DNA of 64,000 nucleotides from an uncultured Clostridia bacterium (GCA_946410665.1 CAMKBC010000002.1:11926-75925), one strand, 5' to 3'; shown: positions 23,592 through 44,400, numbered from the stretch's first letter. Numbers and translations are program-made. The notes: a model not told the origin generated them from the letters alone.

Positions 23592-23683
23592 ACTGTAACA
23601 TAAAAATTCTCAAAAAAGCCCTAATATATCTATATATTAGAAGCATCAAAAATATTAAGAAATATTTTCAAAGGAGAAGTTTT
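23592..23683 (+). promoter_or_regulatory. Conserved promoter/leader block, copy A, shared with 35353..35430
   Basis: tgtaacaNaaaaNttctcaaaaaa ... (c/g)tatatta(g/t)a(a/g)gcatc.aaa..tattttcaaaggagaa is conserved upstream of both giant genes. Confidence 0.5.
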
Positions 23684-26600
23684 ATGAAAGTAAATCTAAG
23701 AAAGTCGACAAAAACAATTTTAAAAGTTGCAAGTCTTATGATTGTATTGATAACAACAATAGTTGCTATCTGCTTAAACAACACAACTTTTAAAAGCTCT
23801 TTAACAGAAGAGCAACTATTCGAGAACAGAGTAGCAAAGAATTACAACGAGTTAACAAACGATGATAAGGAGACTAATGTACCTAATGTTAAATTTGGTG
23901 CTTATTTTTTACGTGACATGGAAGGCAACAATGTAGCACATATGCTTGATGGAACATGTAAGAGAATAGGCAGTTCAGATGATTTGTATTTTGACATTCA
24001 AGTAAGCGGCGATTCATATATCGACAACGCGAAAATCAGAATTACAAACGCAAACTTTAAAGCGGAATTCAATTATTTGAAAGATGACTACCTAAAATAC
24101 AATTACCAAGGTGTTTATAGTTTAATTGAATTCAATAAAATTGACGGTGGTTCAGAAGAGCAAATCTATGGAAACATACAGTTTACTCCTTTAAGTAATT
24201 ACAATGACTATTCAAAGACAGCAGTTGTTACTTTTACTGCTGACTATCATGATATTTATACAGGAGAAACAGCTCAAGTTGAAAAACAAGTACCAATAAC
24301 TGTTGATTGGTATGGAGATTTAAATACAGTAGTGTTTTCACAAAATAGAGCATATAGTCCTGATGACATTGAGGGTAATACTGTAAATACTTTATTTGAG
24401 ATTAAAGAATATGTAGATGAAACTAAAAAAGATGAAACTTTACTTTTGAAAGATAGAACAATAGAAATTAAAATTCCTAATTTAAGACAATGGGAACCGG
24501 TAACTGCTAGATTAAGTGACGGAAATGCAACATATGATCCTGAAACAAAAACACTTACTTTAACTAAAGAATCTAGATTTGATGAGAGTGGAAATTTAAT
24601 AAGTTCGATAGCTAACAAAACATCATACACAGTGTATATAACTTATCCAGAAGAAGCATATCAATATACAACACTAGTTGGGGCTGATGATATATTTAAT
24701 GGAAAAGAGCAACTTAGCCTAAAAACAACAGTTACAACTCATGCATATAATAATCCTGGGGTAGAATTCGAGAATATTGTTACTTCGGAAAACATTGTAT
24801 ATCCAACAATTAAATTTACTCCACCTTCTGCACCACCAGCACCATTAGGAACAACAGTTGTTGTAACTTATGAACATGAGGATAGTGAAATTTCAATACA
24901 GAGAGTATTAGAAAACTACGACAAGGTAAAAGAAGAAGGTTTTGATGCAGGAACACTAAGTTCATATTTTGATACACATATAACAGTTCAAAGAGGAGCA
25001 ATTAGAGACTTTGGACTTTTGAAAATTGATGAGGAATACGTTAAATTTGGACAAAATGATGTAAGTAAATATCTAAAAGACACAAGCATAAGTTACTATG
25101 GAATCAGCGAGATATTAGAGGACGACGGAAAGATTTTAGTATACAATGCAGAGACTGATGAATTAATAAAAGAAATCGGTATGGATGTCATAAGAAAAAA
25201 TTCATCAATAACTGTTCCTGAAAATGTAGCAAGAGTTAGAATTGAATTGACAAACTTCAAAAAATGTGAAGGAACAACAATTAGAGGAAACCGCATATAT
25301 GCAGGAAATCTAGCTGATATATATGTACATAAAGCATTAGACATTAATGCTATAATTAATGATTTTGAATATTCTACACTAAAGAGTTTATCTAACTATT
25401 ATTCAAAGATAGCAGATAAACTATATCAAAAAGATTCAGGTACATTGGAATATACAACTTCAGCAAGTGATTCTTCGAAATTAAAATATAATAAAACTGA
25501 AGCTATGATAAGAGCATATCCAGCAGCTTTTGGAAATAATGGAGAAATTGATGAAGATGCTGAACAACCAGGAGAAGATATAACTCTTACAGTATCTTCA
25601 AAACATGAACAAGACAGAGCTTATTGGGGTAAAGGTGAATTTGTAGTAGAGTTGCCAGATGAATTCAATTACTTTAATTTAAATAGTGTTGAATCAAGTA
25701 CATGTACAATTAATGGATATGAATACTTTGAAGAAAATGGAAAGAAATTAATAAGAGTTTTTGCAGAAACAAACTATAACATCATAATTACAATTAAAGG
25801 ACGTGTAGTAATAGATCCATTAGCTTCAAACGGAAATAAAGCAATAAGACTTTATTACAAGAACGAAAGTTGCGCAGATTACTATAATGGAAAAGTAAGT
25901 GATAAATATGATGTTGATTTAAATGAGGATACAACAGAAGGAATTGGTTATGCATCAACATATGTAACAGTAACGTCACCTGCAACATTTATTGTTAAGC
26001 AAATGGTAACAAATTTCGATGAAAAAGAATCATTTGTTACAGCACCTAATGTTGCTGAAGTAGACAAAGAAACAAATCATGCAACAATTCAAATTGGTGT
26101 AAAGAATAATAATGCAAGTCCAGTTATAGATTGTTATTTAGTAGGAAAGATTCCATACGAAGGAAACACAAAAGTAAAAACCACAACAGATTTGAAATCA
26201 AAATTCACAGCACATATGACATCAGAAGGTATTATTGTTCCAGAAAACTTAAGAAATGTAACAGTTTACTATTCAGAAAATGATTCGGTTAACTTTAACA
26301 TAGATGATGCATCGAATGGATGGAAGTTAAAAGAAGAAATTACTGATTGGAATAAAGTAAGATCTTTCTTAATCGATTTAAGTAATATAACAATTAGATC
26401 TGGAGACGCCAATCAGGTATTTAAATACAATGTTACAGTTCCAAATGGATTATCATATAATGATGCTTCATACTCTACAGTAGCATCTAAATACAACTTA
26501 CAAACAAATTCAGGAATACTTTATAATAGGGGAACAGAATCACAAAAGACAGGTATAAGAATTGTTAGAAAATACAATCTTGATACAACTTTATACAAAG

Positions 26601-29600
26601 AGACAACAAGTAGAGTGGTGCCAAATGAAACTTACATTGTTGAAGAATTAGATGATGAAGGAAATATTGAAAAGTCAAAAATCGGTAAATCTAATGCAAA
26701 TGGAAAATTTGTAATTAAAAATCTATATGCGGAGAAGAATTATAGAATCCGTCAATTAGAAGCAAATATTAATTATGAAAAAGATGAAAATGTTAGATAT
26801 TTCAGAGCGGACGAAAATGCTGAAGGGAATTTGGTGTTCTCATATGCAAATGAAAATTCTGAATTGTTTAACAACACCCCAAACTTTACAAAGGACAGTG
26901 AAACAAATAAAGATATATTAAATGTTTCGATATGGGAAACACCAAAATATGAAATCATACTTAAGAAATTGGATAGAGCGACAGATGAACCAATTAGCGG
27001 AGTAAACTTCTTATGCTATGATGCCAATACAACTGCTTCTGGAAAAACAGATGACACTGGAAAATTAGTGATGAGTAAATTCTTTGAAGATGCGACTTAC
27101 GTTTTAGAAGAAGTTACAGCTAAAGGATATTACCTACAAGACAGCACAGTTAAATTAGTAAAGAATGCTCAATACAACTATTCAGTAGCAATTGGAAATA
27201 ATGAATTTATAACTTCAGCTAGTGCAACAAATGGTGGTGAAGAACAAGATTTAGCAAGAGTAGAATTAGTATTATACAATGACTCAGTTCCAACATACAC
27301 ATTAAATGTTGTTAAAGTAAAAGAAGGAGCGGAAGCTACTAGATTAGCTGGAGCAGAATTTGAAATTACAAAATACGATGATAGCGAAAAGGAAAAAATT
27401 ACTACAGATGAAAATGGTACAGTAACTGTACAAAATATGTACCAATACAAAGAAGGCTTTGATATCACTGGTAAATATGGTTTACAAGAAATAACAGCAC
27501 CACGTGGATATGTTTTAAATAAAGAATATATCGAGTTTGTTGTTTCAAAAGAAAATGACACACTAAAGATTGACTATAAAGATGAAGAAGGTCTAACTTC
27601 TATCAAAGATACAGTAATTGATGGAAATAATGTAACAATTTATATTCAAGATAAAACATTATTTAAATTGACTAAGACAGATGACGATCAAGCATTAATT
27701 CCAAATGTAGCATTTGTAATTTATGAACTCGATGCAGAAGGCAAACTTCTTGATTATGCAAAAGATGCGAATGGCGAATATGTTGGAACGCAAAATGCAA
27801 GAGGAGCATATGAAGTAAGAACAGATGCAAATGGAGAGATAACGATTCCATTAAGAGATGGCGATTATATGCTATTCGAGGTTGAAGCTCCAGAACAATA
27901 TGAGTACAGCACAACAGGAAGAAGATTTAAAGTAAAGAGCGAAGAGACAACAGGCGAAGCAGGAACAGGAAGTGGAGAAGGAACTGAAACAACAGAAGAA
28001 AAATATACATATGCAGTTCAATACTACTATAACGGACAACGCGATGATACAAAGACAGAAACATATGAGGTAGACAAAGATACAGAAGTTACAACATATG
28101 AAGATAAGGTAGAGGATGGATATGAATTCCAATACGTAACTAAGTTGCCTTATAAAATTAGTTGTGATGATTTAGTAATAGATGTTTATTATGCAACACC
28201 AAAGACACAAACACTAGAAATTAATTACATTGAAGATTTAATTGAATTACAAAGAGCAGTAGATAATGGTAACAATTATGAAGACACAAAGGTTGTTTTA
28301 AATAGGAGTTTAGATTTCAATGATGCGGATTCATATAGAGATGCCGAAGGAACCACATATGGCGACTATAATGAAGACGGTACAACAGAAGGCATTAAGA
28401 AGGAAGTTACTTCAGGCAAGGGATGGAAATCTATTGGTGTAAGAAGCACACAAATTGCTGAAACTGCAAATGGTGATTATGTGTTAGATGGAAATAATAT
28501 AAAACATAATCAATTTGAATATAGCAAATTAAAATACTTTGCAGGAACCTTTGATGGAAACAATAATTCGATAAGTAATATGTATGCTAACTATACAGAT
28601 GAGGCATATAGAGATGATGAATACAAATTTACAGCTTCTAATGGTAACGAATATTCAGATTATCATAGTGCAGCTTTATTTGGCTGGACACATAATGCAA
28701 GTATTATGAATTTGAAATTTAGTGCACATATTTCTGAAAACAGAGGTAATGAATACAACAATTTCAACATGGCAAAAGGTGCGGGTTTGATTGGAAATGC
28801 ATACGGATCAATAAATGTATTTAATGTTGAGAATAGTTTAACGGGTAATTATTCTTATGCTGGTATAATTGGTAGTATAGATCAAAGAATAAATTATTAT
28901 GATAGAGAAAATACAAACATTAATATTCAAGATGTAAAAAACGCGATTTGTATTAGCGAAGATGAAGGTGAAAGAGGTGCAGGGTCTTATTCTTATTTGG
29001 GAGTAATAGGATACATGAAAGCTGCTAGTGCACATGACCCTTCTATTGTAGAGACTACAGAAATAAATAATGTAACTAATGATATAACTAACGATATAAG
29101 CGAAGAAAATTCAAGTGGTAAGTCAGTATCATATATAGGAACAATAGGATTTACTGAAGCAACTACAGATCGTACAAATTATGTAAATGATACATGCGGA
29201 ATATATTCGATAAATAGTAATATTATTACTGATAAAACTTGGAGTTACGAAATTGGCGCCGCAATTGGTTATATTGGAAATAAAAACATATCAGAGTATA
29301 AGATTAATAATATGAAGGCAAAAGTTGATTTTGGCGAAGCTTATTATCTTTCAGGAGCCATAGGAATGGGGTATCCAGGGGAAAGCAGTGGAATATTAAT
29401 CGAAAATTTCGATGTTGAAATTACTCAGACAAAAGAAAATGGCAGTTCATGTCAAGTTGGAGGTGTAATAGGATATTTAGCTTATACGGCCAATTCATCG
29501 GATCAATATTCAATAGGAATTGTAAGTATAAAAAATGGAAAAGGTAAGGTAGACTTAAAAAGAAGTTATATGGCTGGTGGAATAGTTGGCGAAGTATATA

Positions 29601-32600
29601 ACTATAATTTGTCGATTTCAAATGCCATAGCGCAAGGAAAGATACAAAGTAGTGATCAATCTGCAGGAATCGCTGGTTATGTATATTCACCAAAAAATCA
29701 GCTAATTATTGAAAATGTAAAAAACTATGCGGACATAACAGAAAGAGAAAATTCAAGTTCGAGTTACAATGGAGGAATAGTAGGATATTTATGCCCTTCA
29801 TATGCATCAATTAAAAATGCAGTTAATTATGGAACAATATATGGAACATATGATAATGGTGGAATAGTAGGAGATTTATCATCGAGCACTGGAGCTCTTT
29901 TTATAGAAAATGTACATAATTATGGAGATATAATCAATAATGCAAGTTATGGAGATGGACAAGGTGGAATAATAGGATACAGCAGTGGATCATATGTTAA
30001 TATTAAAAACGCAAAAAATTACGGAAAGGTAACAGGATATTACTACGTAGGAGGAATTGTTGGTCGTCAGTCTGGAAATAGAATTGAGTTACTAAACTGT
30101 GAAAACATGGGCGAAATAAGCGGAGATAGGCTATATGAATATGCAGGAGGACTATTAGGAACTAGTTATGGCAGCACGCAAATTGAAAGTTCGTTCAACA
30201 AAGGAACTATTAATGTTGTTGGTGAAAATCAAAGCGAGTGTTATTATATTGGTGGTTTGATTGGTTATCAAGGTGGTAGTAACAACGCCTCTTTATATAT
30301 TAACAATAGTTATAACGAAGGAAATATCAATATTTTGAATAAAAGAATGGTATACGAGACAGGTGGATTAGTTGGATGGTATGGTTCAGGTGTAATTCAA
30401 AACAGCTATAACGCCGGAGATATTAATATTGATTACACTGGGCAAGAATATGGATATGCATATGCTATTGGAGGAATAGGATCTTCTAGTGCTTCATCTG
30501 GATTGGTTAATAATGTAATAAATAAAGGAAATATACATATTAATAGCAAGTATGAAAATTCAACATCTTCCAATATAGGAGGAATACTAGGAAATCAAGG
30601 ACAAATAAGTGTAATGAATGTTATAAACCAAGGAGAAATCGAAATATTTTCTAATGGAGTTGATTATTATAGCGTTGGAGGAATCATAGGTGGAAGTAAT
30701 CAGAATGCAAATATACAAAATGCATATAATACAGGGAATATAACATTGTTGGGTGGCAGATATGCAGAAAGTGATTATCCTGACGAACGTGGATTAGGTG
30801 GAATCGTCGGAACTAACGACGAAGGAGCAATAGTAAATAGATGTTATAATTCAGGAAAAATCGTTTCGATGATATTTACAGGAGGTATCGTAGGATATAA
30901 CAAAGGAACCGTAGTAGATTGTTATAATGAAGGAAAAATAACGTCTTATAAGAAGATGGTAGGCGGTATAGCAGGAAAAAATGAATATGTATTATCTAAT
31001 GTATACAATGTAGGAAATGTAACAGCTAAAAACGAGAATGTAAAAATTGGTCCTATTGTGGGTGAAAGCAGTGACGGAATAGATTACAATGGAAACATTG
31101 AATCACAAGATGTCATAGAGAATGCACATTATAGTGATAAGATAACTGTAATTGGAGGCGTTCAAAATCAAGATGGAATAAAACAAGAAGATAATTACAT
31201 GAAGTCGGAAGAGTTTTACAACACTTTAAATACGCATAATGCATGGACTTATATAGATGATCAATATCCAAAACTAATGATTAGTGCAGGAGAAACAATT
31301 CCAGAAACTACAGAATTAAATATTATAAATGATCATAAGATTTATAATATTTCTACAATGTTAAATAATTCAGAAGGCGGATCAATTACAGGATATGGAC
31401 AAGATGTTTTAGAAGAAGTAAGACATGGAGCAAGCAACACAAAAGCAATTGAAATGATTCCAAATGAAGGATATGAAATTGGAAGAGTTACAATAAATGG
31501 TGAGCAACAAGAGATTACTTTAAATGCAGATGGTTCATACAAGATTGATGTTGGAGAATTACAAAACATAAAAGATGATAAGTTAATATATGTAGAATTC
31601 TTAAAACAAGATCAAATCTTATTAATTGAAAAAGTAGATAAAGATACAGATGAAACACTATCGAATGCAACATTTGATATACAACAAATTGAGAATAGTC
31701 CTATAACAGATGAAATAAGTGAACTTAAAGAATCAAATGTACAAAATGAAAATGCAGCTGATGTTGAAAATCTTGTCGATGAAACAATAGGAAATCCAAC
31801 GATGTCAACAGGAAGCTATTCAAAAAACAATGGTGTTTATACTTTAAATTCAGCATACTATAGATATCAATCAGGCAGATATTGGTACGCGATAAATGGA
31901 CGAATTCCAATTAATTTGAGCGATAAAACAGGTAATTATATTGTTAGATTTGAAAGTGAATATTGGGATAGTGCGTCAATTAATAATTCAAATGGCGAAA
32001 GTGTTGGATATATGGAAAGTCGTGCTGTTGAAGGTAGTCAATATAGTTACACATATCTTTTAACAGGTGGAAAATCGTATTATATACAACTTTATAGAGA
32101 TCAATCAGGAAGTACTTTTAGTAGAAGGTTAGATAACTTCCACGTTTATCCAGTGACAGATAAAGCTTATAATATGACAACAACAGATGAAGGATACTAT
32201 GAAACAACAAATGCAAATGTTCCATGGGCAATATCAGCAGGAAATGTGGAAATTGATTTAACAAATCATCCAGAAGAACATACTATATCAGTTAAGCATA
32301 AGAGTGTAGAAAATTCTAACAGGGAGATAGAATTCGATATAATAGTTAAAAATAGCATCACAGATGCGAAAGTGTATGAAAAAACAGTTTATGCACAAGC
32401 AAATGAACAAACAGATACAATTAGTGTTCCGGGTGGTACAAAATATAATTTAGAATTTCGATATAAGAATCTAGCTGGAAACGCTGGAAAACTTCAAATA
32501 ACAGGAGTTTCAATTGAACTAGATGAATCTAAATTAACTAAAGTAACAAGAACTACAAGTGTTGAAGGTCAAATAAAAGTCCAACTTCCAGTAGGTAAAT

Positions 32601-35212
32601 ATAGGATTACAGAAACAAATGCACCAGAACATTATTTACTAAATACCGAATCTACAGAATATTATGTAGATATAAACAAGGAGAATAAAGTAACAATTCA
32701 AGACACACATAAACCAATAGTAAGAGTACATCATTACTTGATGGAAAACGGACAAGAGACAACAAAGAAAGTTGCTGCAGATGAAGAATACGAAGGCAAT
32801 CTTGATGAAGATTATTACTTCAATCCTAAAGATAAGTTAGTAGGATTATCACTAGCTAAAGATGATAATGGCGAGTTAATAATTCCATCTAATTACAAAG
32901 GAAAATACACTTTAGGAGTAACAGATGTTAACTTCTACTATGAGGCAGACAATATCAAATTGACAATTCATCATTATCAAGAAGGAACACAAACAAAAGT
33001 AGCAGAAGATGAAGTAATTGAGAAAGATGCTGTTGTTGAATTTAAGCAAGACGGTTCATATAAAGTATCAGCAACTGGTACATATAAAGTAGCCGACAAT
33101 GCTAAATATCAAGAATTAACAGCAAGCACATATAACTTAACAAGTTTATACTCATCAGTACATGCGGGATTAGAAATTAGAGACACATTAGAATATAGTT
33201 CGAATGCCGAACTAATTTATAATTACAGCACTAAGAAGTATAGAATTGTAACAAGAGTTATAGAACACGAAGAAGTAGTACCAGATGAGGAAGAAGATGA
33301 TGAAGAATCAGAGGAAACAAATCCAATGACAAACACAACATCTAATGAAATCGAAAATACTACAACAAACGAAACAACAGATGAGAATACAACAAATGAA
33401 ACAACTAACACAACTGAAAACACAACAACAACTAATACAGAAACAACACCAAAGACTAAAACTATTTCAGTAAAAGGTGGAACAATTTCTGGTTATGATC
33501 TTGAATACTATGAAGAATTAGCAAGCAATGCAAATAGTACAAAAGACATCATAGTAACACCAGACAAAGGCTACAAGATCAAAGAAATCAAATTAAATGA
33601 TAATGTTGTTTATGATGCGGATCATACAACGAATGATTTATACACAGTCGAAAATGGCGTTGTTACATTTAACAAATTTAACAATGTAGTTGAAGACAAA
33701 ACAATTACTGTTGAATTTGAAGGTGTAGGATCAATTGTAAAAGTTCATCATATTATAACTGAAGAAGGTAAAGAAGACGTAGAGTACAAGACCGTAGAAA
33801 TTAGAGGAAAAGTTGGTTCAAGATACACAACAGAAGAAATTGAAATTGAAGGATATACATTATATTCAACTTCATTAAATACAACAGGTGAAATTGCAGA
33901 AGAACAAATTGATGTATACTACAATTACAAAGCAAATCCAGAAACAACATATACAATCAGATATTTCTATGACAATACAGAAGATGTAGAACTTGCTGAA
34001 AGAATTGTTGGAAAAACAAAAACAACAGTAACAATGGAAGATATTAAAGCTAAGATTGATGGGCATAAGAAAGATGTTTATGAATTTGAAAGAGCAGAGA
34101 ATATACCATTAATGATTGTTAACGACGTAGATGAATATGTAGTTAAGATTTATTACATTTCTACATTTGGTAAAGTAGTTGAAAAACATATTGATGCAGG
34201 ACACAACACACTTCTATACACAGAGATACATAAAGGTTCTATTGGAACTGCATACAATATCAAATCAAGAAAAATTGATGGTTATACATTACTTGAGAAA
34301 GATATAAATGGTAAGAGTGTTCTACCAACAAATGCAGAAGGAACATATGCAAAAGATGTTATTGATACAGTAATTTATTACTATACAAGAAACACAACAG
34401 TTAAGGTTATATATCAAGATGAAAACGAAACTGAGTTAGATAAAGTAATTATTGAAGGACATGAAGGAGACGAATATACAACAGAAGAGAAGACAATCAA
34501 AGGTTATGAACTTGTTGAAACACCAAAGAATGCAGAAGGTGTAATGTTAGTTACAAAAGATTCAAACGGAAATGACAATACAGAAACTGTAGTAATCTAC
34601 AAATACAAGAAATTAATACCAGCTGATGTTGTAGAGAAATATGTTGATATCAACACAAATGAACCTGTTGAAGAAATAACACACAAAGGTGAAATTGATG
34701 AAGAATATGAAATTACTCCAAAGACAATCGAAGGATATACATTAATAACAAAAGATAAAGATGGAAATGATATTCTTCCAACAAATACAAAAGGAAAGTA
34801 TTCAACAACTAAAGTAGAAGTAATCTACTATGTAGCAATGAATGCAACTGTAAGAGTTCAACATATTAACTTAATAACAAGTGAAAAGATGGCAAAAGAT
34901 GTTGTAATTGAAGGTTATGAAGGTAAAGAGTACGAAACAGAACCAATGACATTCGAGGGATATGAATTAACAGGTACTCCTGAAAATGCAAAAGGAAGAA
35001 TGCAAGTTACTTTAGATGAAGATGGAAATAAAGTAACAGAATTAGTAGTTAAATACTATTATGCCGAAAAACTAGAAGGTAAATTACCACAAACAAGTGA
35101 AACAAACTCAAAACAAGCAATTTTAATAGCAATACCTTTTGTAGTACTAATTAACTTAGGATTAGCAACAATAGCATTTAAGAAGAACAAAAAAGAAGAT
35201 ATGAACAAATAA
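23684..35212 (+). CDS. Giant sortase-anchored adhesin (about 3842 aa): signal anchor, Cna-B-like domains, GLUG-like repeat block, Ig-like repeats, Thr/Asn-rich linker, about 6-8 MucBP repeats, LPQTSE sorting signal
   Basis: The ATG at 23684 has RBS aaggag. The upstream 54 codons in the ORF track have no RBS and overlap the conserved leader. Cna-B-like segments read TDDTGKLVM...EEVTAKGYY. The GLUG block reads VGGIVGRQSG, AGGLLGTSYG and IGGLIGYQGG. MucBP repeats include V.V.Y.D..G.......I.G.EG.EY.T.......GYEL....NA.G.....D..V.YYY. The C-terminus is LPQTSE, then a TM segment, then KKNKK. Confidence 0.85.
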   Translation: MKVNLRKSTKTILKVASLMIVLITTIVAICLNNTTFKSSLTEEQLFENRVAKNYNELTNDDKETNVPNVKFGAYFLRDMEGNNVAHMLDGTCKRIGSSDDLYFDIQVSGDSYIDNAKIRITNANFKAEFNYLKDDYLKYNYQGVYSLIEFNKIDGGSEEQIYGNIQFTPLSNYNDYSKTAVVTFTADYHDIYTGETAQVEKQVPITVDWYGDLNTVVFSQNRAYSPDDIEGNTVNTLFEIKEYVDETKKDETLLLKDRTIEIKIPNLRQWEPVTARLSDGNATYDPETKTLTLTKESRFDESGNLISSIANKTSYTVYITYPEEAYQYTTLVGADDIFNGKEQLSLKTTVTTHAYNNPGVEFENIVTSENIVYPTIKFTPPSAPPAPLGTTVVVTYEHEDSEISIQRVLENYDKVKEEGFDAGTLSSYFDTHITVQRGAIRDFGLLKIDEEYVKFGQNDVSKYLKDTSISYYGISEILEDDGKILVYNAETDELIKEIGMDVIRKNSSITVPENVARVRIELTNFKKCEGTTIRGNRIYAGNLADIYVHKALDINAIINDFEYSTLKSLSNYYSKIADKLYQKDSGTLEYTTSASDSSKLKYNKTEAMIRAYPAAFGNNGEIDEDAEQPGEDITLTVSSKHEQDRAYWGKGEFVVELPDEFNYFNLNSVESSTCTINGYEYFEENGKKLIRVFAETNYNIIITIKGRVVIDPLASNGNKAIRLYYKNESCADYYNGKVSDKYDVDLNEDTTEGIGYASTYVTVTSPATFIVKQMVTNFDEKESFVTAPNVAEVDKETNHATIQIGVKNNNASPVIDCYLVGKIPYEGNTKVKTTTDLKSKFTAHMTSEGIIVPENLRNVTVYYSENDSVNFNIDDASNGWKLKEEITDWNKVRSFLIDLSNITIRSGDANQVFKYNVTVPNGLSYNDASYSTVASKYNLQTNSGILYNRGTESQKTGIRIVRKYNLDTTLYKETTSRVVPNETYIVEELDDEGNIEKSKIGKSNANGKFVIKNLYAEKNYRIRQLEANINYEKDENVRYFRADENAEGNLVFSYANENSELFNNTPNFTKDSETNKDILNVSIWETPKYEIILKKLDRATDEPISGVNFLCYDANTTASGKTDDTGKLVMSKFFEDATYVLEEVTAKGYYLQDSTVKLVKNAQYNYSVAIGNNEFITSASATNGGEEQDLARVELVLYNDSVPTYTLNVVKVKEGAEATRLAGAEFEITKYDDSEKEKITTDENGTVTVQNMYQYKEGFDITGKYGLQEITAPRGYVLNKEYIEFVVSKENDTLKIDYKDEEGLTSIKDTVIDGNNVTIYIQDKTLFKLTKTDDDQALIPNVAFVIYELDAEGKLLDYAKDANGEYVGTQNARGAYEVRTDANGEITIPLRDGDYMLFEVEAPEQYEYSTTGRRFKVKSEETTGEAGTGSGEGTETTEEKYTYAVQYYYNGQRDDTKTETYEVDKDTEVTTYEDKVEDGYEFQYVTKLPYKISCDDLVIDVYYATPKTQTLEINYIEDLIELQRAVDNGNNYEDTKVVLNRSLDFNDADSYRDAEGTTYGDYNEDGTTEGIKKEVTSGKGWKSIGVRSTQIAETANGDYVLDGNNIKHNQFEYSKLKYFAGTFDGNNNSISNMYANYTDEAYRDDEYKFTASNGNEYSDYHSAALFGWTHNASIMNLKFSAHISENRGNEYNNFNMAKGAGLIGNAYGSINVFNVENSLTGNYSYAGIIGSIDQRINYYDRENTNINIQDVKNAICISEDEGERGAGSYSYLGVIGYMKAASAHDPSIVETTEINNVTNDITNDISEENSSGKSVSYIGTIGFTEATTDRTNYVNDTCGIYSINSNIITDKTWSYEIGAAIGYIGNKNISEYKINNMKAKVDFGEAYYLSGAIGMGYPGESSGILIENFDVEITQTKENGSSCQVGGVIGYLAYTANSSDQYSIGIVSIKNGKGKVDLKRSYMAGGIVGEVYNYNLSISNAIAQGKIQSSDQSAGIAGYVYSPKNQLIIENVKNYADITERENSSSSYNGGIVGYLCPSYASIKNAVNYGTIYGTYDNGGIVGDLSSSTGALFIENVHNYGDIINNASYGDGQGGIIGYSSGSYVNIKNAKNYGKVTGYYYVGGIVGRQSGNRIELLNCENMGEISGDRLYEYAGGLLGTSYGSTQIESSFNKGTINVVGENQSECYYIGGLIGYQGGSNNASLYINNSYNEGNINILNKRMVYETGGLVGWYGSGVIQNSYNAGDINIDYTGQEYGYAYAIGGIGSSSASSGLVNNVINKGNIHINSKYENSTSSNIGGILGNQGQISVMNVINQGEIEIFSNGVDYYSVGGIIGGSNQNANIQNAYNTGNITLLGGRYAESDYPDERGLGGIVGTNDEGAIVNRCYNSGKIVSMIFTGGIVGYNKGTVVDCYNEGKITSYKKMVGGIAGKNEYVLSNVYNVGNVTAKNENVKIGPIVGESSDGIDYNGNIESQDVIENAHYSDKITVIGGVQNQDGIKQEDNYMKSEEFYNTLNTHNAWTYIDDQYPKLMISAGETIPETTELNIINDHKIYNISTMLNNSEGGSITGYGQDVLEEVRHGASNTKAIEMIPNEGYEIGRVTINGEQQEITLNADGSYKIDVGELQNIKDDKLIYVEFLKQDQILLIEKVDKDTDETLSNATFDIQQIENSPITDEISELKESNVQNENAADVENLVDETIGNPTMSTGSYSKNNGVYTLNSAYYRYQSGRYWYAINGRIPINLSDKTGNYIVRFESEYWDSASINNSNGESVGYMESRAVEGSQYSYTYLLTGGKSYYIQLYRDQSGSTFSRRLDNFHVYPVTDKAYNMTTTDEGYYETTNANVPWAISAGNVEIDLTNHPEEHTISVKHKSVENSNREIEFDIIVKNSITDAKVYEKTVYAQANEQTDTISVPGGTKYNLEFRYKNLAGNAGKLQITGVSIELDESKLTKVTRTTSVEGQIKVQLPVGKYRITETNAPEHYLLNTESTEYYVDINKENKVTIQDTHKPIVRVHHYLMENGQETTKKVAADEEYEGNLDEDYYFNPKDKLVGLSLAKDDNGELIIPSNYKGKYTLGVTDVNFYYEADNIKLTIHHYQEGTQTKVAEDEVIEKDAVVEFKQDGSYKVSATGTYKVADNAKYQELTASTYNLTSLYSSVHAGLEIRDTLEYSSNAELIYNYSTKKYRIVTRVIEHEEVVPDEEEDDEESEETNPMTNTTSNEIENTTTNETTDENTTNETTNTTENTTTTNTETTPKTKTISVKGGTISGYDLEYYEELASNANSTKDIIVTPDKGYKIKEIKLNDNVVYDADHTTNDLYTVENGVVTFNKFNNVVEDKTITVEFEGVGSIVKVHHIITEEGKEDVEYKTVEIRGKVGSRYTTEEIEIEGYTLYSTSLNTTGEIAEEQIDVYYNYKANPETTYTIRYFYDNTEDVELAERIVGKTKTTVTMEDIKAKIDGHKKDVYEFERAENIPLMIVNDVDEYVVKIYYISTFGKVVEKHIDAGHNTLLYTEIHKGSIGTAYNIKSRKIDGYTLLEKDINGKSVLPTNAEGTYAKDVIDTVIYYYTRNTTVKVIYQDENETELDKVIIEGHEGDEYTTEEKTIKGYELVETPKNAEGVMLVTKDSNGNDNTETVVIYKYKKLIPADVVEKYVDINTNEPVEEITHKGEIDEEYEITPKTIEGYTLITKDKDGNDILPTNTKGKYSTTKVEVIYYVAMNATVRVQHINLITSEKMAKDVVIEGYEGKEYETEPMTFEGYELTGTPENAKGRMQVTLDEDGNKVTELVVKYYYAEKLEGKLPQTSETNSKQAILIAIPFVVLINLGLATIAFKKNKKEDMNK
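28700..31050 (+). repeat. GLUG-like repeat block (about 25 units) in the 3842-aa protein
   Basis: Recurrent N(Y/K)G.(I/V)....(Y/N)(V/A)GG(I/L)(V/I)G units occur every 25-30 aa. Confidence 0.65.
33722..35075 (+). repeat. MucBP-like repeat array (6 clear units; 2 more degenerate units lie at about 32718-33020)
   Basis: Examples are VKVHHIITEEGKEDVEYKTVEIRGKVGSRYTTEEIEIEGYTL...IDVYYNY, and ATVRVQHINLITSEKMAKDVVIEGYEGKEYETEPMTFEGYELTGTPENAKGRMQV....LVVKYYY. Confidence 0.7.
35084..35101 (+). other. Sortase sorting-signal motif LPQTSE, followed by a hydrophobic segment and a basic tail
   Basis: tta cca caa aca agt gaa encodes LPQTSE, followed by ...AILIAIPFVVLINLGLATIAFKKNKK. Confidence 0.7.
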
Positions 35213-35229: not shown

Positions 35230-35265
35230 GGAGGGAGATAGAGATAATCTATCTCCTCTTTTTTA
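35230..35265 (+). terminator. Rho-independent terminator
   Basis: The stem ggagatag/ctatctcc has a 7-nt loop and is followed by tcttttttat. Confidence 0.65.
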
Positions 35266-35352
35266 TGTTTGCAAAACCTTAAAGCACGAAATCTTTACGG
35301 GATTAAAGGTTTAAAGCTGATTTTGGTAGTTAATTATAACAATGTATTAGAG

Positions 35353-35430: not shown

Positions 35431-35479
35431 CTATGATGTGAAAATATTCATATCAAGCAAAAGAAAAAAGGAGAAAACA

Positions 35480-38400
35480 ATGAAAACACTTAAACTTAAA
35501 AAAGTAATAACAATAGTTACAATGTTTTTATTAGCAATTGCTCTAATAATAGTTGGAGAAACTAAGAGAGTTGAACTATCAGAGATTACAAAACAAAAAT
35601 ATCTTGATAACAACAATCAAACAAAAATCACATGGGGTGATTTAACTGGAAATGGCTATGATGCAACAGCATACAATACTGGCTGGAACGATGCTAGTAC
35701 AGGTATGGTGTTTAATGGCACGAGCTCATATGCCCAAATCAAAGAAGTTAACTTAGAGCAGTTCACTTTAGAAGTTGCATTTAGAGCTTCTAACTTATCA
35801 AAAGAAGGAGAACAAACTTTATTAGCAAACTTCCAAGAAGGTGGATATGGTTTATTAATCAGAGATAAAAGATTAATAGGTCAAGCATATTTAGACGGAG
35901 AATGGAAAACTATTTCAACAGAAGATGGTGAAGGAACAGTTAGTGATGTTTTAGAAGAAAATATCATGTATGTTGCTCATCTTACTTTTGATGGAACAAA
36001 TCTATCTTTGTATCTAGATGGTGAGTTAATTGGAACTGTAACAGGTACGACATTAACATATCCAAAGAATAATACAATCATGATGCTTGGTGAAAATCCA
36101 GACGGAACAAATGCTGTAGAAGATAAATACTTAGAAGGAACAATTCATGAAGCAAAGATTTATAGTAAGAGTTTAAGTGATAATGAAATAGAAAACAATT
36201 TAGAAATTGTTGAACGTGTATATGCAGATGGTGTAAGTGGAAGATTAAACAACATCGAAGGCTATGTTCAAGATGGATTATTAATGGATCTTGAAGGTAG
36301 AAAAATCGAACGTACACAAGAAAGAATTGCAGATTTAAGTTTAAGAACATTCATAACAAAAATAAATGGTGAAGAATTATCAACATCTAGAGAACCAAAT
36401 GTGGAAATCGTAGATGGAAAATTTAATTACAAACATTCAAAGAATAAAGTTAATGTTGTAAAAGGTGATGTTATAACATACAAAATCAGAGTTTACAACG
36501 AAGGTAAAGAAGCAGCAAATGCAGAGAAGGTTGGAATTTATTTACCTGAAGAAATGAAGGTAATCGGATTAGATGATAGCGAGAGTGTAAATTCAAAATA
36601 CTTATGGACACAAGATGAAGGAAACGTATTCATCACAAAATATTTATCAAACCAAGAAATTAAAAAGAATGGTGTTAAGGTAATTGAAAACAGAAGTATA
36701 CCAGCGTATTCAGAAAATGCAGGAATACAATACAAGGACATTGAATTAGAAATATTAGTAAACGAAGATATAACAATTGCCGATGGTTACAGATTAGTTG
36801 TTGTAGCAGAGATTATGAAAGAGAGTCAAAATGATAGTGACTCAACACCACGTAATTTCAACATGACACAAGCAGATATTAAAACATACAAAAAAGCAGA
36901 AGCAGAACAATCATCAGCAGAAAGCTACATTGCTGGAAAAGAAGATGATGACGATTTTGAAAATGTATATGTAAATAAAACATACGATGCAAAAATTGAG
37001 TTAAACAAAATCAGTATAGCTAACGAAAAAAATATTGGTGGCGGAAAAATTAAGATTACAAACAATGTTTCTGACAGTGATATTAGATTAAAAATTTATA
37101 ATAAAGCAACAATGTCAGAATTAGAAAAAGACGAAAATGGATATGTTGTTCCACCACAAGAAGGTGTATTAATCGGACTTTCAAGATTACAAAAGAATGT
37201 TGAAAATGAAATTTTAATCGAAGAAGAATCTGCAGCAGAAGGATATGTAAAAGTAATTGATAGCACAAAATTAAAAGTTAAGATAAATGCAAATGAAGAA
37301 ATTGAAGCTATCATTACAAGTGTTGTAGAAAAGAAAATTAAAGAAGACGGAACTGTTGAGACACAAGAGTTATCAGGTTCAATCGAAAAAGATGCATTCT
37401 TAAGAGACGAAGATCAAAATGGCTTAGTTACAAAAGATGGAATCGCAACAGGTCAAAGAGTTGAATACAAGATTGGTGAAGATGGCGAATGGAAGAGATA
37501 CACAGGATCATTCAAACTACAAACAAATAAAACAATTTATGCAAGAAGTACAGACGGAACAAATTACAGTGGTACAGCAATCAAAGTTGTAGATAACATT
37601 GATAAGATTGCACCAACAATAGATACAATTGCAGACAAAGAAGAAACACTAGATATTGAAACTTCAATTGAATTCCATGTTACAGATACAAGCACAGAAG
37701 ATTATGGTGCTTCAGGAGTTTCTAAATTTGGAATCAGCGAAAACGATGTTGATGAACCAGAAGAATGGTTAGATGCGGACAAGACAACAGACTTTACAGG
37801 AACAGTAGAGCATATTGAAGATGAAGGTACATTCAGAATTTGGGTAAAAGACGTTGCAGGAAACATTGCAATCTCAAATGAATTTAGAATTGATTTACCA
37901 GATATCTCAGTTGCAAAAATTACAGCAATTGTAGATAGAGATGGAAATGAAATCACAAGTTTAATTAATACAGAGTACTACACATTAGAATCATGTTTCG
38001 CAACAATACCAGAAGGTGCTACTGCAACTGTTCAAGTAATTCATAGAATTTACAACGAAGCAAATGTTCTTGATGGAAACAAAACAGTAACACTAGATTT
38101 AAACGGATACACAATTGGAAACAGAAGCAGAAGAGAACCAACATTCACAATCGGAAGTGAAAACTCAGATGCAAGTTTAACAGTTATAAACAACAAAGGT
38201 AGGGGTGGTGTTTCTAGTAACAACACAGAAGCTATAGTTATAAATGACGGAAGCATCTTCACATTGGGCGAAGATAACAAGAGAGTTGTACAAAGCCAAC
38301 CAAAGATTACAGGTAAGACAACAGGTATCGATGTAAAGAATGGTGGTGTGTTTAATTTCTATGATGGAAACATCACAGCTGAAAAAGCTATTTATGGAAA

Positions 38401-41400
38401 TGTAAGTTCAACACCAATTGGATACAATGCATTCATCGAAGATTCAACAACAGATGAATTACAAACAGCAACATTACAAGTTATATCAAACGTTGAAGCA
38501 AGAATCGGTAGAAAGATGTACACATTACTAGAAGATGCTATCGCTGATTGCCAAACAAAATATGGAACAGATGGTTCACAAGTAGAAGTTGTTTTATTAA
38601 AGAACATTGCTAAAGATATGACAATCGAGATTGCAGAGAATCAAAATATCAAATTAGATTTAAACGGACATGATTTTACAACAGTAACAAATGGATACGT
38701 AGTTGATAATAAAGGTAAGTTTGAATTATTTGATAGTTCTGTAATGACAGGAAGTTATGATTATAAAGTTGAAGCTGAGGATACATCAAGAGTATCAAGA
38801 AATGGTGGAAGCAATATTTCTACAAATGGATTCACAGGTGTACAAAAATACAAAGAATTAGCTTTCAATTTCGACATTGAAGAATATGGTACATACATGT
38901 TCTCTATATCAGGTATTTACATGAGTAGAGAATCAGATATCTATTTAGATGATAGCGATACAAGTATGTACAACTTTGCAGAAAGAACATATGGTGCAGA
39001 GTACACAACAGTAAATGTTATATTAGATAACCTAGATCCAGGAACACATAGACTAAGAGTTGTTAACAATGCAGAAGGTGGAGAACAACCAATCATTGAC
39101 TACTTCGAAGTAAGTAACAACAAAGGATCAGGAAGAATTTATAGTACAACAAATCACGTAATTCACAACTGGAATTTTGATGAGAGAGTAACAGACATCA
39201 GCAAAATTGATACAGTTGATTATGAAGAATTAATTACAGATGAAAAAGTAAGTATACACAATGCTTATAGACATTCAAGAACATGGACAGATGATTTAAG
39301 TGTATATAGAGATGAAGACAATTCAATTGCATTAAATGAAACAACATGTGAAGATTGGTCAGCAGGATACATTGAAATTGATTTAACAGATAAAGAAGTA
39401 AAACCATATTTAATTCAATTTGACTATCATGCAAAATCAACTGGAAATAGAAGATTAGATATGTACTTCTCAGCTTATGAATTTGGTGCATATGATAGAG
39501 AAGGTAGAATTCTTTATAGAGATGGCGGAAATTTTGATCTTAATGAAACTTATAAGGCATATGTAACTGGTGGATCTAAACACTATATTCATTTAGCAAT
39601 GTATAAGAATAGATATTGCAATAACGAATTTGATTTTAGAGTAAAAAGCATTAAATTAGTTGAGGTTAATGATTTCAACATGGCGCAAATGACAATCACA
39701 TCAGGAATTATCGACACACAAAAAACAGGTACATATGAAGAAAGAACAGGTGGTATCTTTAATGAAGGTAACCTTATTGTAAAAGGTGGTAGATTTACAA
39801 CAGCACTTCAAACAGGAGACGATGGTAGAAAATGCGGTATTAGAAACTATGGCTTTGTAACAATACAAGATGCTCAGTTTGATGGAATGATTCATGGTAT
39901 CTATAATGGATGGTACAACAATTCAAAGTACGGAGTAATGACGCCAATAGTAAAAATAAATAATGTTAATATGAATTGTACTCATATAAATTATATGGGA
40001 GCTGGCCACTCAATTGCCGAAATCAAGAAGGGTAAATTTAATTCTAAATCTTCGTATGAAGTATGGCAAAACTACGAAGATTCAACTGTTATTATTAATC
40101 CTGAATCAGATGAAGATGTTCAATTTATGAATGGTGGCGACTGGGAAATCTATATGAGTAGAGATAACGGAAAGCAACTTTATATTAAAGGTGGAACATT
40201 CAGACATGCTGGAGGCATTATTTATTCATATGATGATTACTGGAGAGGTTCACAAAGATGGATGTATAACCAAATAACTATTGATGGCGGAGATTTTCAA
40301 TCAACTTCAGGTGAAATGATAGCAACATCTTACAGTGCAAAGATCATTGTTAACGGAGGAAAATTTGTAACATCAGGAGATAGAATATTTAGAATAAACA
40401 ACTTCATGGATGTTACAATTAATGATGGTGAATTCTATGCTACAAGAGGAACTGGTAATATTCTTTACTGTGATTATTATGACAACAGCTACAGTAAATT
40501 AACAATTAATGGAGGTTATTTCACTAACGTAACAGAAGCAAATAATAGCTATTGGACATTATTCCAATTCTATTATGGAGCACATGTAACAATTAATGGT
40601 GGCGAGTTACATGCTGGTAGTACAGTATTCCATGAAAACAGAGGCAATCTAGACTTAAAGATTTTAGGTGGAAACATAACATCAAATGTTGGACCACTAA
40701 CAAATACAGATAATCATGATGGTGGATGCAGTGTTGTAATTGGAACTAAAGATGGTAATGTAGAAATGCAACCAGAAATTAAAGTTTCTACTTCATATCC
40801 GTTAGTTACAAATAACAATGCAACAGTAAAATTCTATGATGGTGTGTTGTATGCACAAAAGAATCCATTCTTAAATTGTAATCTAGAAGAAATTGAAGAC
40901 AACACAAATGTTGTTTCAGAAGATTACGGAGAAAGAGGATTAAAGGTTTGGCTAGGAGATAATTCTTCACAAGAGAATGTAGAAATATATGAATGTCCAG
41001 ACAATCAAAGTTTAGTTGGAACAAAGTATTCAACAATTCAAAAAGCATTAGATCAATGCAGTACAGATGCAGGAGATAATGTAACAAAGATTAGATTATT
41101 AAAAGATTATTCTAATTTTGAAATTAACACGATTAAAAAAGGACAAAATGTAATTATCGATCAGGATGCATATATTTTATGGAATTATAGAAACAACGGA
41201 TTTGATAACTATGGAAAAGTAGAATTTATAAATACACAAAATAATTTATATAGTAGAGAAATAAAAAACACAGAATTAGTAAGCAATCACATATATCCAG
41301 AGAGAGATTACAATTTCACAGACTATAGAATTATAAAAGATAAGAGCGGAAGAAATAATGATTTAGAGTTGTTATGCGCAGGAAAAGATGCTGATACAAA

Positions 41401-44400
41401 CGGAATTGCTTGCAATACTTATACTACAGGCGTAATTAGAAATTGGAATATAACAGATGCAGAACAAAAAGCAATGGAAATTGTATTAAAGACAACAACT
41501 AGAGAAAACACGTGTATTTTCATGTCACCAAATGGACAACATATGGCATTTGGCGTATGGAACAATACTTTCTTACTATCATGCAAAAGTAACAACAATC
41601 AAACTTTTGTGATACCAGATGATTTCTATGATGGCACAATGAAAGATATTGTAATAAACTACAACAGTGAAACCAACCAATATACAGTTTACTATAACGG
41701 AAGAAAGTTAGAAACTAGAGGATCTGGTAACTGGTGGGGAAATGGTAATAGTTATGGAGCTTTCTTTGGAAGAAGACCAAATCAAGATAACTTCCATGGA
41801 ACAGTATTTGCATTAAGACAATATAGTGAAAACTTAACAGAAGAACAAATCGCAACAAATTATGAATCAGCACAAGAAAAATACGTAGATGGAGAAGATG
41901 AAGATAACTATACAACAGATAATCTTATATTAGATATAGATTCTTCAACAATTGATTGGGAAAAAGTTGCATTGGCAAGCCATAATGTTAATAACTACAC
42001 GACGAACTCATGGGGATATCAAAAAATTGACTTAAGAGATCAAGCGGGAAGATTCTTAATTACAGTAAATGCAGAAACTAGAATATCTAACATTAGTGGA
42101 CGTACATCATGGGCGCATGCAAGAATATTAACAGACACTTCGATAAGAGGTGAAAGTGATACAACAGGAAGATTTATTCATGTTACTGGTGATACAACTG
42201 CAACAGACTATACTTATGAAGTAGAAGGTGGCAAGATATATTACTTACATTATGGTTTCTATCACAATAGTCAAGCACTAGAAACATTTACTATTAACAG
42301 CATTAAGGTAACAACAATACAACAAGGAAAAATCTTTAGTAGAAATTGTAATCTATTAAAGAATGGTAGATTGGTAGAGGAAGAATCATGGAAAGACTTG
42401 AGTGGAAATAATAGACATGGTGTGTTAGTAGGACCAGTATGGGATGATGACAACAGAGGATTAGTATTTGATGGAAATGATTATGTAAGAATTGCTCAAA
42501 TGAATTATAGACAGTTCACATTTGAATCAACATTTGAATTGAGCAGTATACATAATGGATGGAATACAGTTATGTCTAACTACCATTCTGGTGGTTGGGG
42601 ATTATCTGTAAATGGATCAGATAAGAAATTATATGCCAGAGCTTATATTAATGGAGATTATAGAAATATACCATTAGAAATTCCAATTGAAGTAAATACC
42701 AAATACACAGCAGGTATAATGTATGATGGCCATATGATGTATCTATATGTAAATGGAATGGTAGTAAATACATGGAAATCAACAGATTATGACACATACA
42801 AACATTGGCCAGATAGTTCAACTTATGTTGTACTAGGAGGAGATGCTGCAGGAAGCGGTGCTGATGGAGAATGGCTAAATGGAAAAGTATATTCAGCAAG
42901 AGGATATAGTAGAAAATTAACAGATTTAGAAATCGCGCAAAATTATCAAAAAGATAGAGCGTTGTATTATGGAGATGATGCAGAGTACATTGAAAATATC
43001 ACAGGCTACGTAGAAAAAGATAGAATATTAGATTTCGAAGGAAGACATCATGCTGATAGTTTAGATAATTCTATGTATGCAAAATTAGGTGCTAATTTAT
43101 ACATAGAGGAAAGAGGTTTAAAAAATAGAGACGTTATAAAAAATGCTGGAACCTTAGATATCGATACATATAAATTTATAGTAGATGGAAGAAATACAAA
43201 AACTATTAGAAACGACAATGATGGTATAGTTAATATTTATGGTTGGGATTATGACTCAACTTCATATGAGAACACAGTTGTATTTGATAATCATAGAAGA
43301 GGTACAATTAATTACTATGATGGAAATACAGAAGCAACGACATCAGAAAGTTCTATCATTTTCAACAACCTAAACAATTCAACTGCTAATATATACGATG
43401 GTATTATTAGAAAAAATGGTAGATATGTAATGAACCAAAATGGTGGTTATAGTACTATGAATATTTATGGTGGTACTATTACATGTGAAGGTAGATGGGA
43501 TGGCGAGACAAGAATACTTTATAATTATGAAAATGGTACATTAAATATTTCTGGAGGAATTATTAACTATTATGCAACGTCAAACTATTCTACACGATAT
43601 GGTATTGATAATATAAATAGTGCAGAGTTCCATATTACTGGAGGAAAGATAAATTGGCAATCAACATACTGTAATTACTCGCGTGTAATCCGTAATGCTA
43701 GTCCAAAACATAGTTCGATAGAAAACTATGAGATATATGCTAGAGAATTAAATACGAGCACAGATTTAATACATTTCTTAAATGAAGGTACAAATTCAGA
43801 GATAACTATTAAGAATTCAAAATTCTGGCAAGATGCACATACTACTAGTTGGAACAACCATGCGGCTATCTATAACAACGCATCAAATGCGGTTGTTAAC
43901 GTAGAAAACTTCATATCAGATACTATTTGGATTGGAATTAACAATCCTAACGGAACAGTAAATGTAAAAAATTGTAACATCTTAAACTCTGTTACAGGTA
44001 TTAATATTAGTGCTGGAGCAGTAAATTGTGATGGTGTTAATGTAGAATCTACAACAACAGGATTAAATCAAACCGGAGGAACATTACATGTATATGGAAA
44101 TAGTAGAATTACAAGCACAACAAATGGTGCAAATGTAACAGGTGGAACATTCATATTAGGACAAGAAGGTGCTAATAGTGAAGATGAAAATGAACCAATT
44201 GTTGATATTAATAAGCCATATATTCAAGGTGTAAATTATGGTGTAAACAATACAGCAACATTCAAGTTCTATGATGGTAGAATAAAAGCAAATGATGGAA
44301 AATCAATAACAGGAAATATTACAGCAAAAGAGGCTGGATACCAAGTAAAAGTAATTAAATATACTGAAGGTGAATCAGGAAATGAAATTGCAAAAGAAGA

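Follow-up and report, generated by a model that had tools for sequence, protein, structure and literature searches.

A variable passenger followed by a conserved repeat stalk and a sorting signal is the textbook design of a Gram-positive adhesin. The closest described counterpart of the sorting signal considered here is LPQTxE, the published consensus sortase motif of Lactiplantibacillus plantarum (PMC3619620, PMC7295990); in that organism LPQTSE has been put to use as a functional anchor, and the sortase acts on LPQTSEQ in vitro (PMC3619620, PMC7295990, PMC9060782). The literature that we found for the hexapeptides LPQTSE and LPQTNE dealt in every case with L. plantarum or with sortase-ligation technology. 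We analysed a 64-kb stretch of DNA (64,000 nucleotides, GCA_946410665.1 CAMKBC010000002.1:11926-75925; hereafter the window) from an uncultured Clostridia bacterium, in which two adjacent genes encode giant surface proteins of 3842 amino acids (aa; P1) and 5621 aa (P2) with a common C-terminal cassette of two MucBP units and an LPQTSE or LPQTNE motif. P1 and P2 are probably wall-anchored adhesins, with the cassette as wall-proximal stalk base and sortase signal, shared between them once and anciently. Nothing known about adhesin design is overturned here; the sole unusual point is the glycine-less signal in Clostridia, a variant so far described in L. plantarum and relatives.

P1 and P2 resemble the LPQTxE proteins of L. 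plantarum (Lp_2578 anchor, SrtLp) in carrying the same hexapeptides, in which position 5 varies and Glu is kept at position 6, ahead of a hydrophobic segment and a basic tail. Lactobacillaceae MucBP proteins of Secundilactobacillus (P0070) and Dellaglioa (P0113) also carry LPQTNE or LPQTDE. In contrast, P1 and P2 belong to an uncultured Clostridia host, and the nearest relatives of their cassette are proteins from Clostridia metagenome-assembled genomes (MAGs) with (L/I)PQTG, so that LPQT(S/N)E probably arose independently of the Lactobacillaceae and is apparently convergent with their LPQTxE.

Tandem PF06458 (MucBP) beta-grasp units, preceded by a functional N-terminal region and followed by a C-terminal sorting signal, are also found in Firmicutes MucBP LPXTG proteins (Listeria internalin InlJ, lmo0835, Lactococcus YwfG, Pediococcus PEPE_0118), and the NCBIfam InlJ model matched the P1 and P2 arrays. 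P1 and P2 differ from these in being far larger (3842 and 5621 aa, with up to 15 units), in their strict alternation of two unit classes (A and B), in having no leucine-rich-repeat internalin domain and in a motif without glycine. MUB of L. reuteri (Mub-R5, 3i57; Mub-RV, 4mt5) is likewise a repetitive, stalk-like adhesin with a C-terminal sortase anchor and has a related fold (Foldseek probability 1.00, E = 4e-06 to 6e-05). Its repeats, however, are ~184-200 aa long with B1 and B2 subdomains, whereas the P1 and P2 units are 67-91 aa, contiguous and sub-threshold for MucBP_2; and mucus binding has been demonstrated for MUB, whereas P1 and P2 are known here from sequence. The concept of a tandem beta-rich rod that projects an N-terminal binding region is familiar from rigid stalks (SHIRT of SGO_0707, SraP, Rib/CnaB-type), and SHIRT (7avh) and SraP (4m00) were among our Foldseek matches. 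P1 and P2 use a different domain family, and their rod is suggested by a continuous strand in an AlphaFold2 (AF2) model.

Architecture of P1 and P2 and their shared cassette

P1 and P2 lie head to tail. As the start of each gene we took the first ATG of the open reading frame (ORF) with a good AAAGGAGA-type ribosome-binding site upstream, and this choice reproduced exactly the sizes of 3842 and 5621 aa given in an earlier annotation of the window (the original prediction). MucBP units were delimited with Pfam MucBP (PF06458, gathering cut-off 23 bits) and with our own hidden Markov model (HMM) built from the repeats. The features are:

23522..35212, + strand: ORF call containing P1
23684..35212, + strand: P1 gene, 3842-aa surface protein, likely start ATG 23684 with ribosome-binding site
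35438..52345, + strand: ORF call containing P2, head to tail with P1
35480..52345, + strand: P2 gene, 5621-aa surface protein, likely start ATG 35480 with ribosome-binding site
34616..35212, + strand: P1 cassette including anchor, last 198 aa
51752..52345, + strand: P2 cassette including anchor, last 197 aa
34616..35074, + strand: MucBP part of the P1 cassette (Pfam MucBP), with A-type unit u5 at 34625..34846 and B-type unit u6 at 34847..35074
51761..52180, + strand: MucBP part of the P2 cassette (Pfam MucBP), with A-type unit u14 at 51761..51979 and B-type unit u15 at 51980..52180
32717..32953, 33734..33940, 34172..34396 and 34397..34615, + strand: P1 MucBP units u1-u4 (own HMM)
48800..51760, + strand: P2 MucBP units u1-u13, a leading unit plus six A-B di-domain periods

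The two cassettes were 68% identical over 188 aligned positions, and a BLASTP comparison over the last 336 aa gave E = 1e-106. This agrees with the original prediction that the C-termini are about 70% identical over about 200 aa and comprise two MucBP units, LPQTSE or LPQTNE, a hydrophobic segment and a basic tail, all of which are present in both proteins; the interval named there (33722..35212) spans P1 units 2-6 plus the anchor and is wider than the cassette. Sliding-window identity stepped from 0.45-0.57 to ~0.72 at 'LIPADV', near ORF residue 3697, and held that level to the end. By reciprocal best match, P1 u5 and u6 paired with P2 u14 and u15 (68% and 73% identity), while all other unit pairs reached at most 57%. 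The cassette is exactly one A-B MucBP period.

The cassette units on their own scored above the Pfam MucBP cut-off in both proteins (41.9 and 32.1 bits in P1, 38.8 and 44.4 bits in P2), with no other family competing for them. In the AF2 model of the P1 cassette, residues 1-155 had a predicted local distance difference test (pLDDT) score above 90, one continuous strand ran from the A unit into the B unit (cassette residues 67-85) and a helix occupied residues 176-196. Searched against the Protein Data Bank with Foldseek, the model matched YwfG best (E = 2.9e-09), and other matches were Mub-RV, Mub-R5, an Ig-binding protein of R. gnavus and, among small MucBP structures, lmo0835, PEPE_0118, LBA1460 and Spr1345; the chains returned included 2kt7, 3lyy, 3q69 and 3nz3. 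The units are accordingly modelled with a beta-grasp-like MucBP fold. From the last strand (VVKYYYA) to LPQT there are ~6 residues, and a Pro/Gly-rich wall spacer is absent.

Upstream of the cassette, the arrays differ in length. Across whole proteins, Pfam MucBP gave 84.6 bits (7.9e-24, 5 stretches) for P1 and 384.9 bits for P2 (1.5e-117 for the C-terminal part, 13 stretches). Our own HMM resolved 15 contiguous units in P2 (nucleotides 48800..52180; domain E-values 1e-19 to 1e-28) and 6 scoring units in P1, two isolated and a terminal block of four (1e-17 to 1e-21). The predicted count of about 15 for P2 therefore stands, but that of about 8 for P1 was an overcount, because 2-3 further MucBP-like segments of P1 reached the threshold of neither Pfam MucBP nor our own HMM. 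The alternative of a Listeria-Bacteroides repeat, which the original prediction had named as the outcome that would speak against MucBP, did not materialize: Flg_new (PF09479) was absent from the whole proteins at Pfam E <= 0.01 and from the cassettes at E <= 1. MucBP_2 (PF17965) scored 14.6-19.3 bits, under its cut-off of 23.4.

The P2 array consists of one leading unit and seven alternating A-B di-domain periods, in which the A class is shorter and the B class longer (unit length 67-91 aa). Mean identity was 37-40% within a class and 33% across classes, a contrast matched in none of 2000 label permutations, and the junctions followed the same period, with 0 linker residues from A to B and 1-2 from B to A.

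The passengers carried by this common base are different. P1 begins with a signal-like segment and an N-terminal module that is widespread in Clostridia MAG proteins, and continues with four SpaA/prealbumin-like domains (Pfam SpaA, 5.1e-33) and a GLUG-type beta-helix region (Glug, 8e-09). P2 has a signal-like N-terminus, three Laminin_G_3/ConA-like domains, and DUF11-like and beta-helix-like repeats. Judged by eye, both secretion signals have a basic n-region and then a hydrophobic stretch (MKVNLRKSTKTILKVASLMIVLITTIVAI in P1, MKTLKLKKVITIVTMFLLAIALIIVG in P2). No BLASTP match at E < 1e-3 linked the passengers (P1 residues 1-3060 against P2 residues 1-4450), and phmmer --max returned only borderline traces (best domain E 0.0034 to ~0.02); the trace at 0.0034, P1 residues ~2763-2900 against P2 ~2187-2272, was rejected as a module common to both because it was borderline. 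The passenger-plus-anchor organization of the original prediction is thus real, and its statement that the upstream regions are unrelated applies to the passengers, but not to the stretch between passenger and cassette, where a further MucBP array is 30-55% identical between P1 and P2.

Within the P1 lineage, the central GLUG/beta-helix region (28200..32700) varied much more than the N-terminal module, the MucBP units and the anchor: it was 54% identical to that of the full-length orthologue P0012, in an alignment with 170 gap positions, where the other parts were 71-89% identical. The central region may be exposed and hypervariable.

The probable glycine-less sorting signal and a candidate sortase

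After the MucBP pair, both proteins have in order the motif, a stretch of five polar residues, a 21-residue hydrophobic segment and a tail rich in Lys and Arg:

35084..35101, + strand: LPQTSE motif of P1, read directly as TTA CCA CAA ACA AGT GAA
35117..35179, + strand: hydrophobic segment of P1, AILIAIPFVVLINLGLATIAF, 21 residues (translation)
35180..35209, + strand: basic tail of P1, KKNKKEDMNK (translation)
52190..52207, + strand: LPQTNE motif of P2, read directly as TTA CCT CAA ACA AAT GAA
52223..52285, + strand: hydrophobic segment of P2, MVLIAIPIIVLVNLALGVKAF, 21 residues (translation, alignment)
52286..52342, + strand: basic tail of P2, KRTKKEEAKVENVKQTESK, which starts KRTKK (translation)
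12586..13287, + strand: candidate sortase, 233 aa (Pfam Sortase PF04203, 2.6e-19)

In eight aligned cassettes that were otherwise 63-84% identical, the named residues of LPQT-x-ETN-x-KQ were invariant and the hydrophobic segment largely so. All 13 cassettes that we read, those of the window included, have LPQTSE or LPQTNE, with Glu invariant at position 6 and Gly never present. At position 5, P1 encodes Ser (AGT) and P2 encodes Asn (AAT), and the switch between the two occurs in both paralogue lineages, since P0285 is P1-type with LPQTNE and P0007 is P2-type with LPQTSE. The nearest outgroups, Clostridia MAG proteins 37-45% identical to the cassette, have the homologous junction YYAKKATG-(L/I)PQTG(I/E), indicating that the loss of glycine is derived in the P1/P2 lineage. 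Along the path GGT to AGT to AAT, each step is a single transition.

We propose that P1 and P2 would be exported by Sec via the N-terminal signal, after which the hydrophobic segment and the charged tail would keep them in the membrane. A sortase would then cut after Thr, tolerating Ser or Asn at position 5 and reading Glu at position 6, a step modelled on the handling of LPQTxE by the L. plantarum sortase, and the product would be linked covalently to peptidoglycan. Because the terminal MucBP pair abuts the motif, it is expected to lie inside the wall, where it would form the embedded base of a rigid stalk of 6 units in P1 or 15 in P2. The stalk would project the passengers, and these, rather than the cassette, would hold the binding or enzymatic specificity. 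The glycine-less motif itself would have arisen in the P1/P2 lineage from an (L/I)PQTG ancestor.

The candidate enzyme is encoded ~10 kb upstream of P1, in the same gene cluster. It has an N-terminal membrane segment, the His in IIGHNY, the catalytic Cys motif TLITC and a downstream Arg, and scored 42.4 bits against TIGR01076 (cut-off 39.35). The closest solved chain was 2kw8 (E = 1.4e-10), deposited as 'LPXTG-site transpeptidase family protein', which we take to be Bacillus anthracis sortase A. The next two chains were deposited as 'Class A sortase'; matches to solved class A enzymes, at E = 1e-10 to 1e-8, were weak. Near-identical copies of the gene are found with the same neighbours on long contigs of the same species. 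Homologues ~50% identical (loci L089-L095) lie directly after a HIT-family gene, among tRNA-synthetase genes, on ruminant-gut MAG contigs, with no substrate gene adjoining. Such a context is the usual arrangement of housekeeping sortases.

These homologous loci also carry a second sortase gene, at a distance of a few kb from the first (277 aa in L089-L093, running off the end of the locus in L094-L095). The sortase of the window has moved instead into a cluster of surface-protein, glycosyltransferase and GH5 genes.

Several observations weigh against wall anchoring by this signal and this enzyme. The canonical LPXTG criterion, Gly at position 5, is broken by LPQTS and LPQTN. The cassette tails had no match to PF00746 at E <= 1 or to the NCBIfam LPXTG-anchor models (for example, TIGR01167) at E <= 0.1, and the sole NCBIfam match to the tails, EF0750_LPXTG, scored 13.8 and 18.4 bits against a cut-off of 47. 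The sortase reached the cut-off of no class-specific NCBIfam model, and that it processes P1 and P2 is an inference of ours. LPQTxE was read on two proteins of a 64-kb window, from which a general motif of the organism does not follow; the only other anchored protein in the window (2680..4095) has a different '...ITVKTGH' tail; and cleavage at LPQT(S/N)E in Clostridia is a prediction. The missing glycine, the silent anchor models and the putative nature of the sortase-substrate link would also fit proteins that stay anchored in the membrane by their C-terminus, with LPQT(S/N)E as a relic. A relic would decay, however, whereas LPQT-x-ETN-x-KQ is invariant both across the paralogues, at a synonymous divergence (dS) of ~0.8, and among orthologues 63-84% identical; glycine-less LPQTxE is a proven sortase signal in L. 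plantarum; and all three parts of the architecture are in place, as is a sortase gene. We therefore regard the relic as improbable and retain the reading of a sorting signal.

A ruminant-gut lineage may have independently evolved LPQT(S/N)E while a housekeeping-type sortase outside the established class models co-evolved to read Glu at position 6 in place of Gly at position 5, a tentative proposal that we think somewhat more apt to fail than to hold. If true, sortase recognition would have been re-specified a second time, in a phylogenetically independent lineage, and the enzyme would be an orthogonal candidate for sortase-mediated ligation. Should the glycine-less motif indeed be processed, the lineage would independently exemplify a change in sortase specificity at the positions that follow the cut. 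For annotation, the standard LPXTG-anchor models miss these tails, so that automatic pipelines would overlook them: giant gut-Clostridia adhesins may use an anchor motif that such models do not see, and surface proteomes predicted for such MAGs would undercount sortase substrates.

Other unusual tails were seen beside these. The window protein at 2680..4095 (+ strand), a 471-aa MucBP and SpaA protein, ends in '...PLLITVKTGHDALIPLAALMMIGAATLLVYVVKKRNTNSNE' (~3970..4092), with '[VI]x[VI]xTG', a hydrophobic segment and a basic tail, and dozens of giant Clostridia MAG MucBP proteins end alike ('SVSTG', 'AVGTG', 'SIATGLDRNDR'). The tail of the window protein may represent a second class of sorting signal, distinct from LPXTG, within this organism. 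From a different lineage, a distant MucBP-array protein of an ENA metagenome (P0006, 345 aa), with 32-34% identity to the cassette, shows one more variant without glycine: its C-terminus reads 'IPQTSDKN...', then a hydrophobic segment and 'KKKRDDENK'.

Age of the shared cassette and the possible role of the MucBP arrays

Between P1 and P2, the cassette had a non-synonymous divergence (dN) of 0.22 and a dS of 0.80 (dN/dS ~0.27), against dN 0.72 and dS 1.2 in the aligned upstream units. The cassette is under purifying selection; as dS is near saturation, the contrast of 0.8 with 1.2 is only suggestive, a caution on the reading of one ancient exchange. The longest identical DNA word between the cassettes was 17 nucleotides, and the two genes had no 20-mer in common, which excludes recent gene conversion.

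To place the cassette, we searched it against 5.8 billion proteins and a profile of it against 1.84 billion cluster representatives. In both searches, every cassette at least 60% identical lay on a P1 or P2 orthologue, either complete or fragmentary. A tail-only profile (5.8 billion proteins) added two more fragments, each after the end of a MucBP B unit. When metagenome contigs were scanned with a degenerate DNA pattern for LPQT(S/N)ETN, there were 24 matches, one of them a P2-type cassette (L118), also joined to a MucBP B unit; the other 23 were rejected as chance matches in unrelated high-GC DNA. In species-representative genome contigs, a scan for the 198-aa cassette gave 598 pattern matches, none confirmed. 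P0010 (1011 aa, cassette 95% identical) was considered as a third, shorter passenger and rejected: with 96% identity to P1 residues 2885-3896, it is a piece of a P1 orthologue truncated by the contig edge.

P1-type cassettes were 79-84% identical to that of the window P1, apart from the one near-identical fragment at 95%, and P2-type cassettes 85-97% identical to that of the window P2, whereas the two types were 63-72% identical to each other. They thus form two separate clades whose split predates the sampled lineages. Between the window P1 and P0012, the six MucBP units were 80, 87, 71, 89, 80 and 82% identical and the sorting signal 84%. The terminal units are no better conserved than the others between P1 orthologues, so that the extra similarity of the P1 and P2 cassettes points to more recent shared ancestry.

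The best reading of the sharing is a single ancient event in register with the A-B di-domains, either a recombination or a duplication after which the upstream array turned over. The domain shuffling of the original prediction holds in this form, as one old event; active shuffling is disfavoured by the dS of ~0.8 and by the restriction to P1 and P2 orthologues in the collections searched. That the cassette is instead an actively exchanged mobile module, subject to recent conversion or shuffling among many surface proteins, might be expected from the mosaic surface proteins of the locus, in which P2 shares a 360-aa module, and P1 its GLUG-type repeats, with the protein at 4163..12469. Yet, besides the synonymous divergence and the short shared words, the separate clades are older than the sampled lineages and every search placed the cassette on P1 or P2 orthologues only, which indicates one ancient exchange or duplication and makes a mobile cassette extremely improbable. 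A whole-gene tandem duplication without recombination, in which the passengers were replaced or diverged and the terminal units stayed alike through constraint, would fit the adjacency, common strand and common architecture of the genes, the purifying selection on the cassette and the remaining relatedness (30-55%) of the upstream MucBP units. Constraint alone should also show between orthologues; there the terminal units (80% and 82%) fall within the upstream range of 71-89%. The identity profile, moreover, steps at a unit boundary rather than following a gradient, and dS is lower in the cassette than upstream, both values being near saturation. We consider this history unlikely, though deserving of real weight, and keep to the single ancient event.

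The original prediction also took the repeats as a sign of mucin binding in an animal-gut organism. An animal-gut origin is plausible from the housekeeping relatives described below, and the units are true MucBP, structurally like the Mub repeats of L. reuteri, which are reported to bind mucin glycans and immunoglobulins (cited in PMC9815576); more generally, that some MucBP or Mub domains do bind mucus or immunoglobulins, as described in the literature, counts against a purely structural role for the arrays. In YwfG, however, the closest solved match, sugar binding was confined to the lectin at the N-terminal tip, none of the tested sugars being bound by the MucBP and MubR4 constructs (PMC9815576). 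In P1 and P2, the arrays lie at the wall-proximal end, with the cassette ~6 residues from the sortase motif, and the passengers offer lectin-like (Laminin_G_3) and other candidate binding domains. The rumen wall is, besides, not a classic mucus surface, so that if the host lives in the rumen, mucus is not its obvious target. Mucin binding by the cassette is thus unsupported here, and we think it quite unlikely that the arrays are the mucin-binding part of the proteins and mark a mucus-associated gut lifestyle; a stalk remains our reading. A 'MucBP' label, above all beside an anchor, is no evidence for mucus binding.

Genomic setting and neighbouring genes

The window has a G+C content of ~31%, and its real-looking ORFs are all on the + strand. 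Two terminator-like elements flank P1:

23466..23493: terminator-like hairpin upstream of P1 (terminator scan)
35233..35266, + strand: terminator-like stem-loop followed by a T run, after P1 (hairpin 35233..35257; consensus scan, 10-pair stem)

For the stem-loop after P1, 0.1 sites were expected in shuffled sequence by the consensus scan. With hairpins on both sides of P1, the arrangement suggests that P1 and P2 are separate transcription units. An inverted repeat with a T run is also visible after P2 (~52352-52390), unflagged by the terminator scan.

The order of a G5-domain gene, P1 and P2 is kept in three metagenome contigs (L001, L082 and L083), in all of which orthologues of the P2 N-terminus lie downstream of P1 orthologues; the full-length orthologue P0012 comes from the syntenic loci L082 and L083. 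A frameshift that appeared to split the P1 orthologue of L001 at the cassette boundary was dismissed as an artefact of a run of N in the scaffold.

To locate the host, we compared the YaaT/PSP1 protein of the window with 185,579 species genomes; it was at most 61% identical to any of them. The best matches were MAGs of uncultured Clostridia from the guts of humans (Hadza, CAG:440), rabbits and ruminants, and an animal-gut origin is likely. Contigs of the same or a sister species are labelled SHIW14, LIJU20, TONG22 and XIEF21 or come from the run SRR873606; these presumably belong to digestive-tract studies of sheep, cattle and buffalo, SRR873606 and SHIW14 perhaps to the sheep-rumen project PRJNA202380, an unconfirmed assignment of ours. 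A ruminant-gut origin is plausible.

All 24 plausible genes of the window run along the + strand, with a positive GC skew in each 2-kb bin; the three minus-strand ORFs of at least 150 aa are each nested in a larger + strand gene. This layout fits a long stretch of leading strand in a Firmicutes chromosome. Two + strand ORFs (20401..21168, 255 aa; 59092..60369, 425 aa) had no Pfam match at E <= 0.001.

Two further large proteins, at 4163..12469 (+ strand, 2768 aa) and in a truncated ORF at 3..2393 (+ strand), are rich in GGI/AGG-type repeats; both are similar to P1 in its GLUG region, and both lack a hydrophobic anchor at the C-terminus. The 2768-aa protein closes with a long tail that is acidic and of low complexity, and the module that this protein shares with P2 is 35% identical and falls near the N-terminal end of P2. 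Immediately after the sortase gene, 13313..16286 (+ strand) encodes a GT2 glycosyltransferase (546 aa) and a GH5 cellulase-family protein (441 aa). The sortase-GT2-GH5 arrangement is conserved in contigs of the same species, and the GT2 and GH5 genes may be tied to cell-surface or exopolysaccharide biology.

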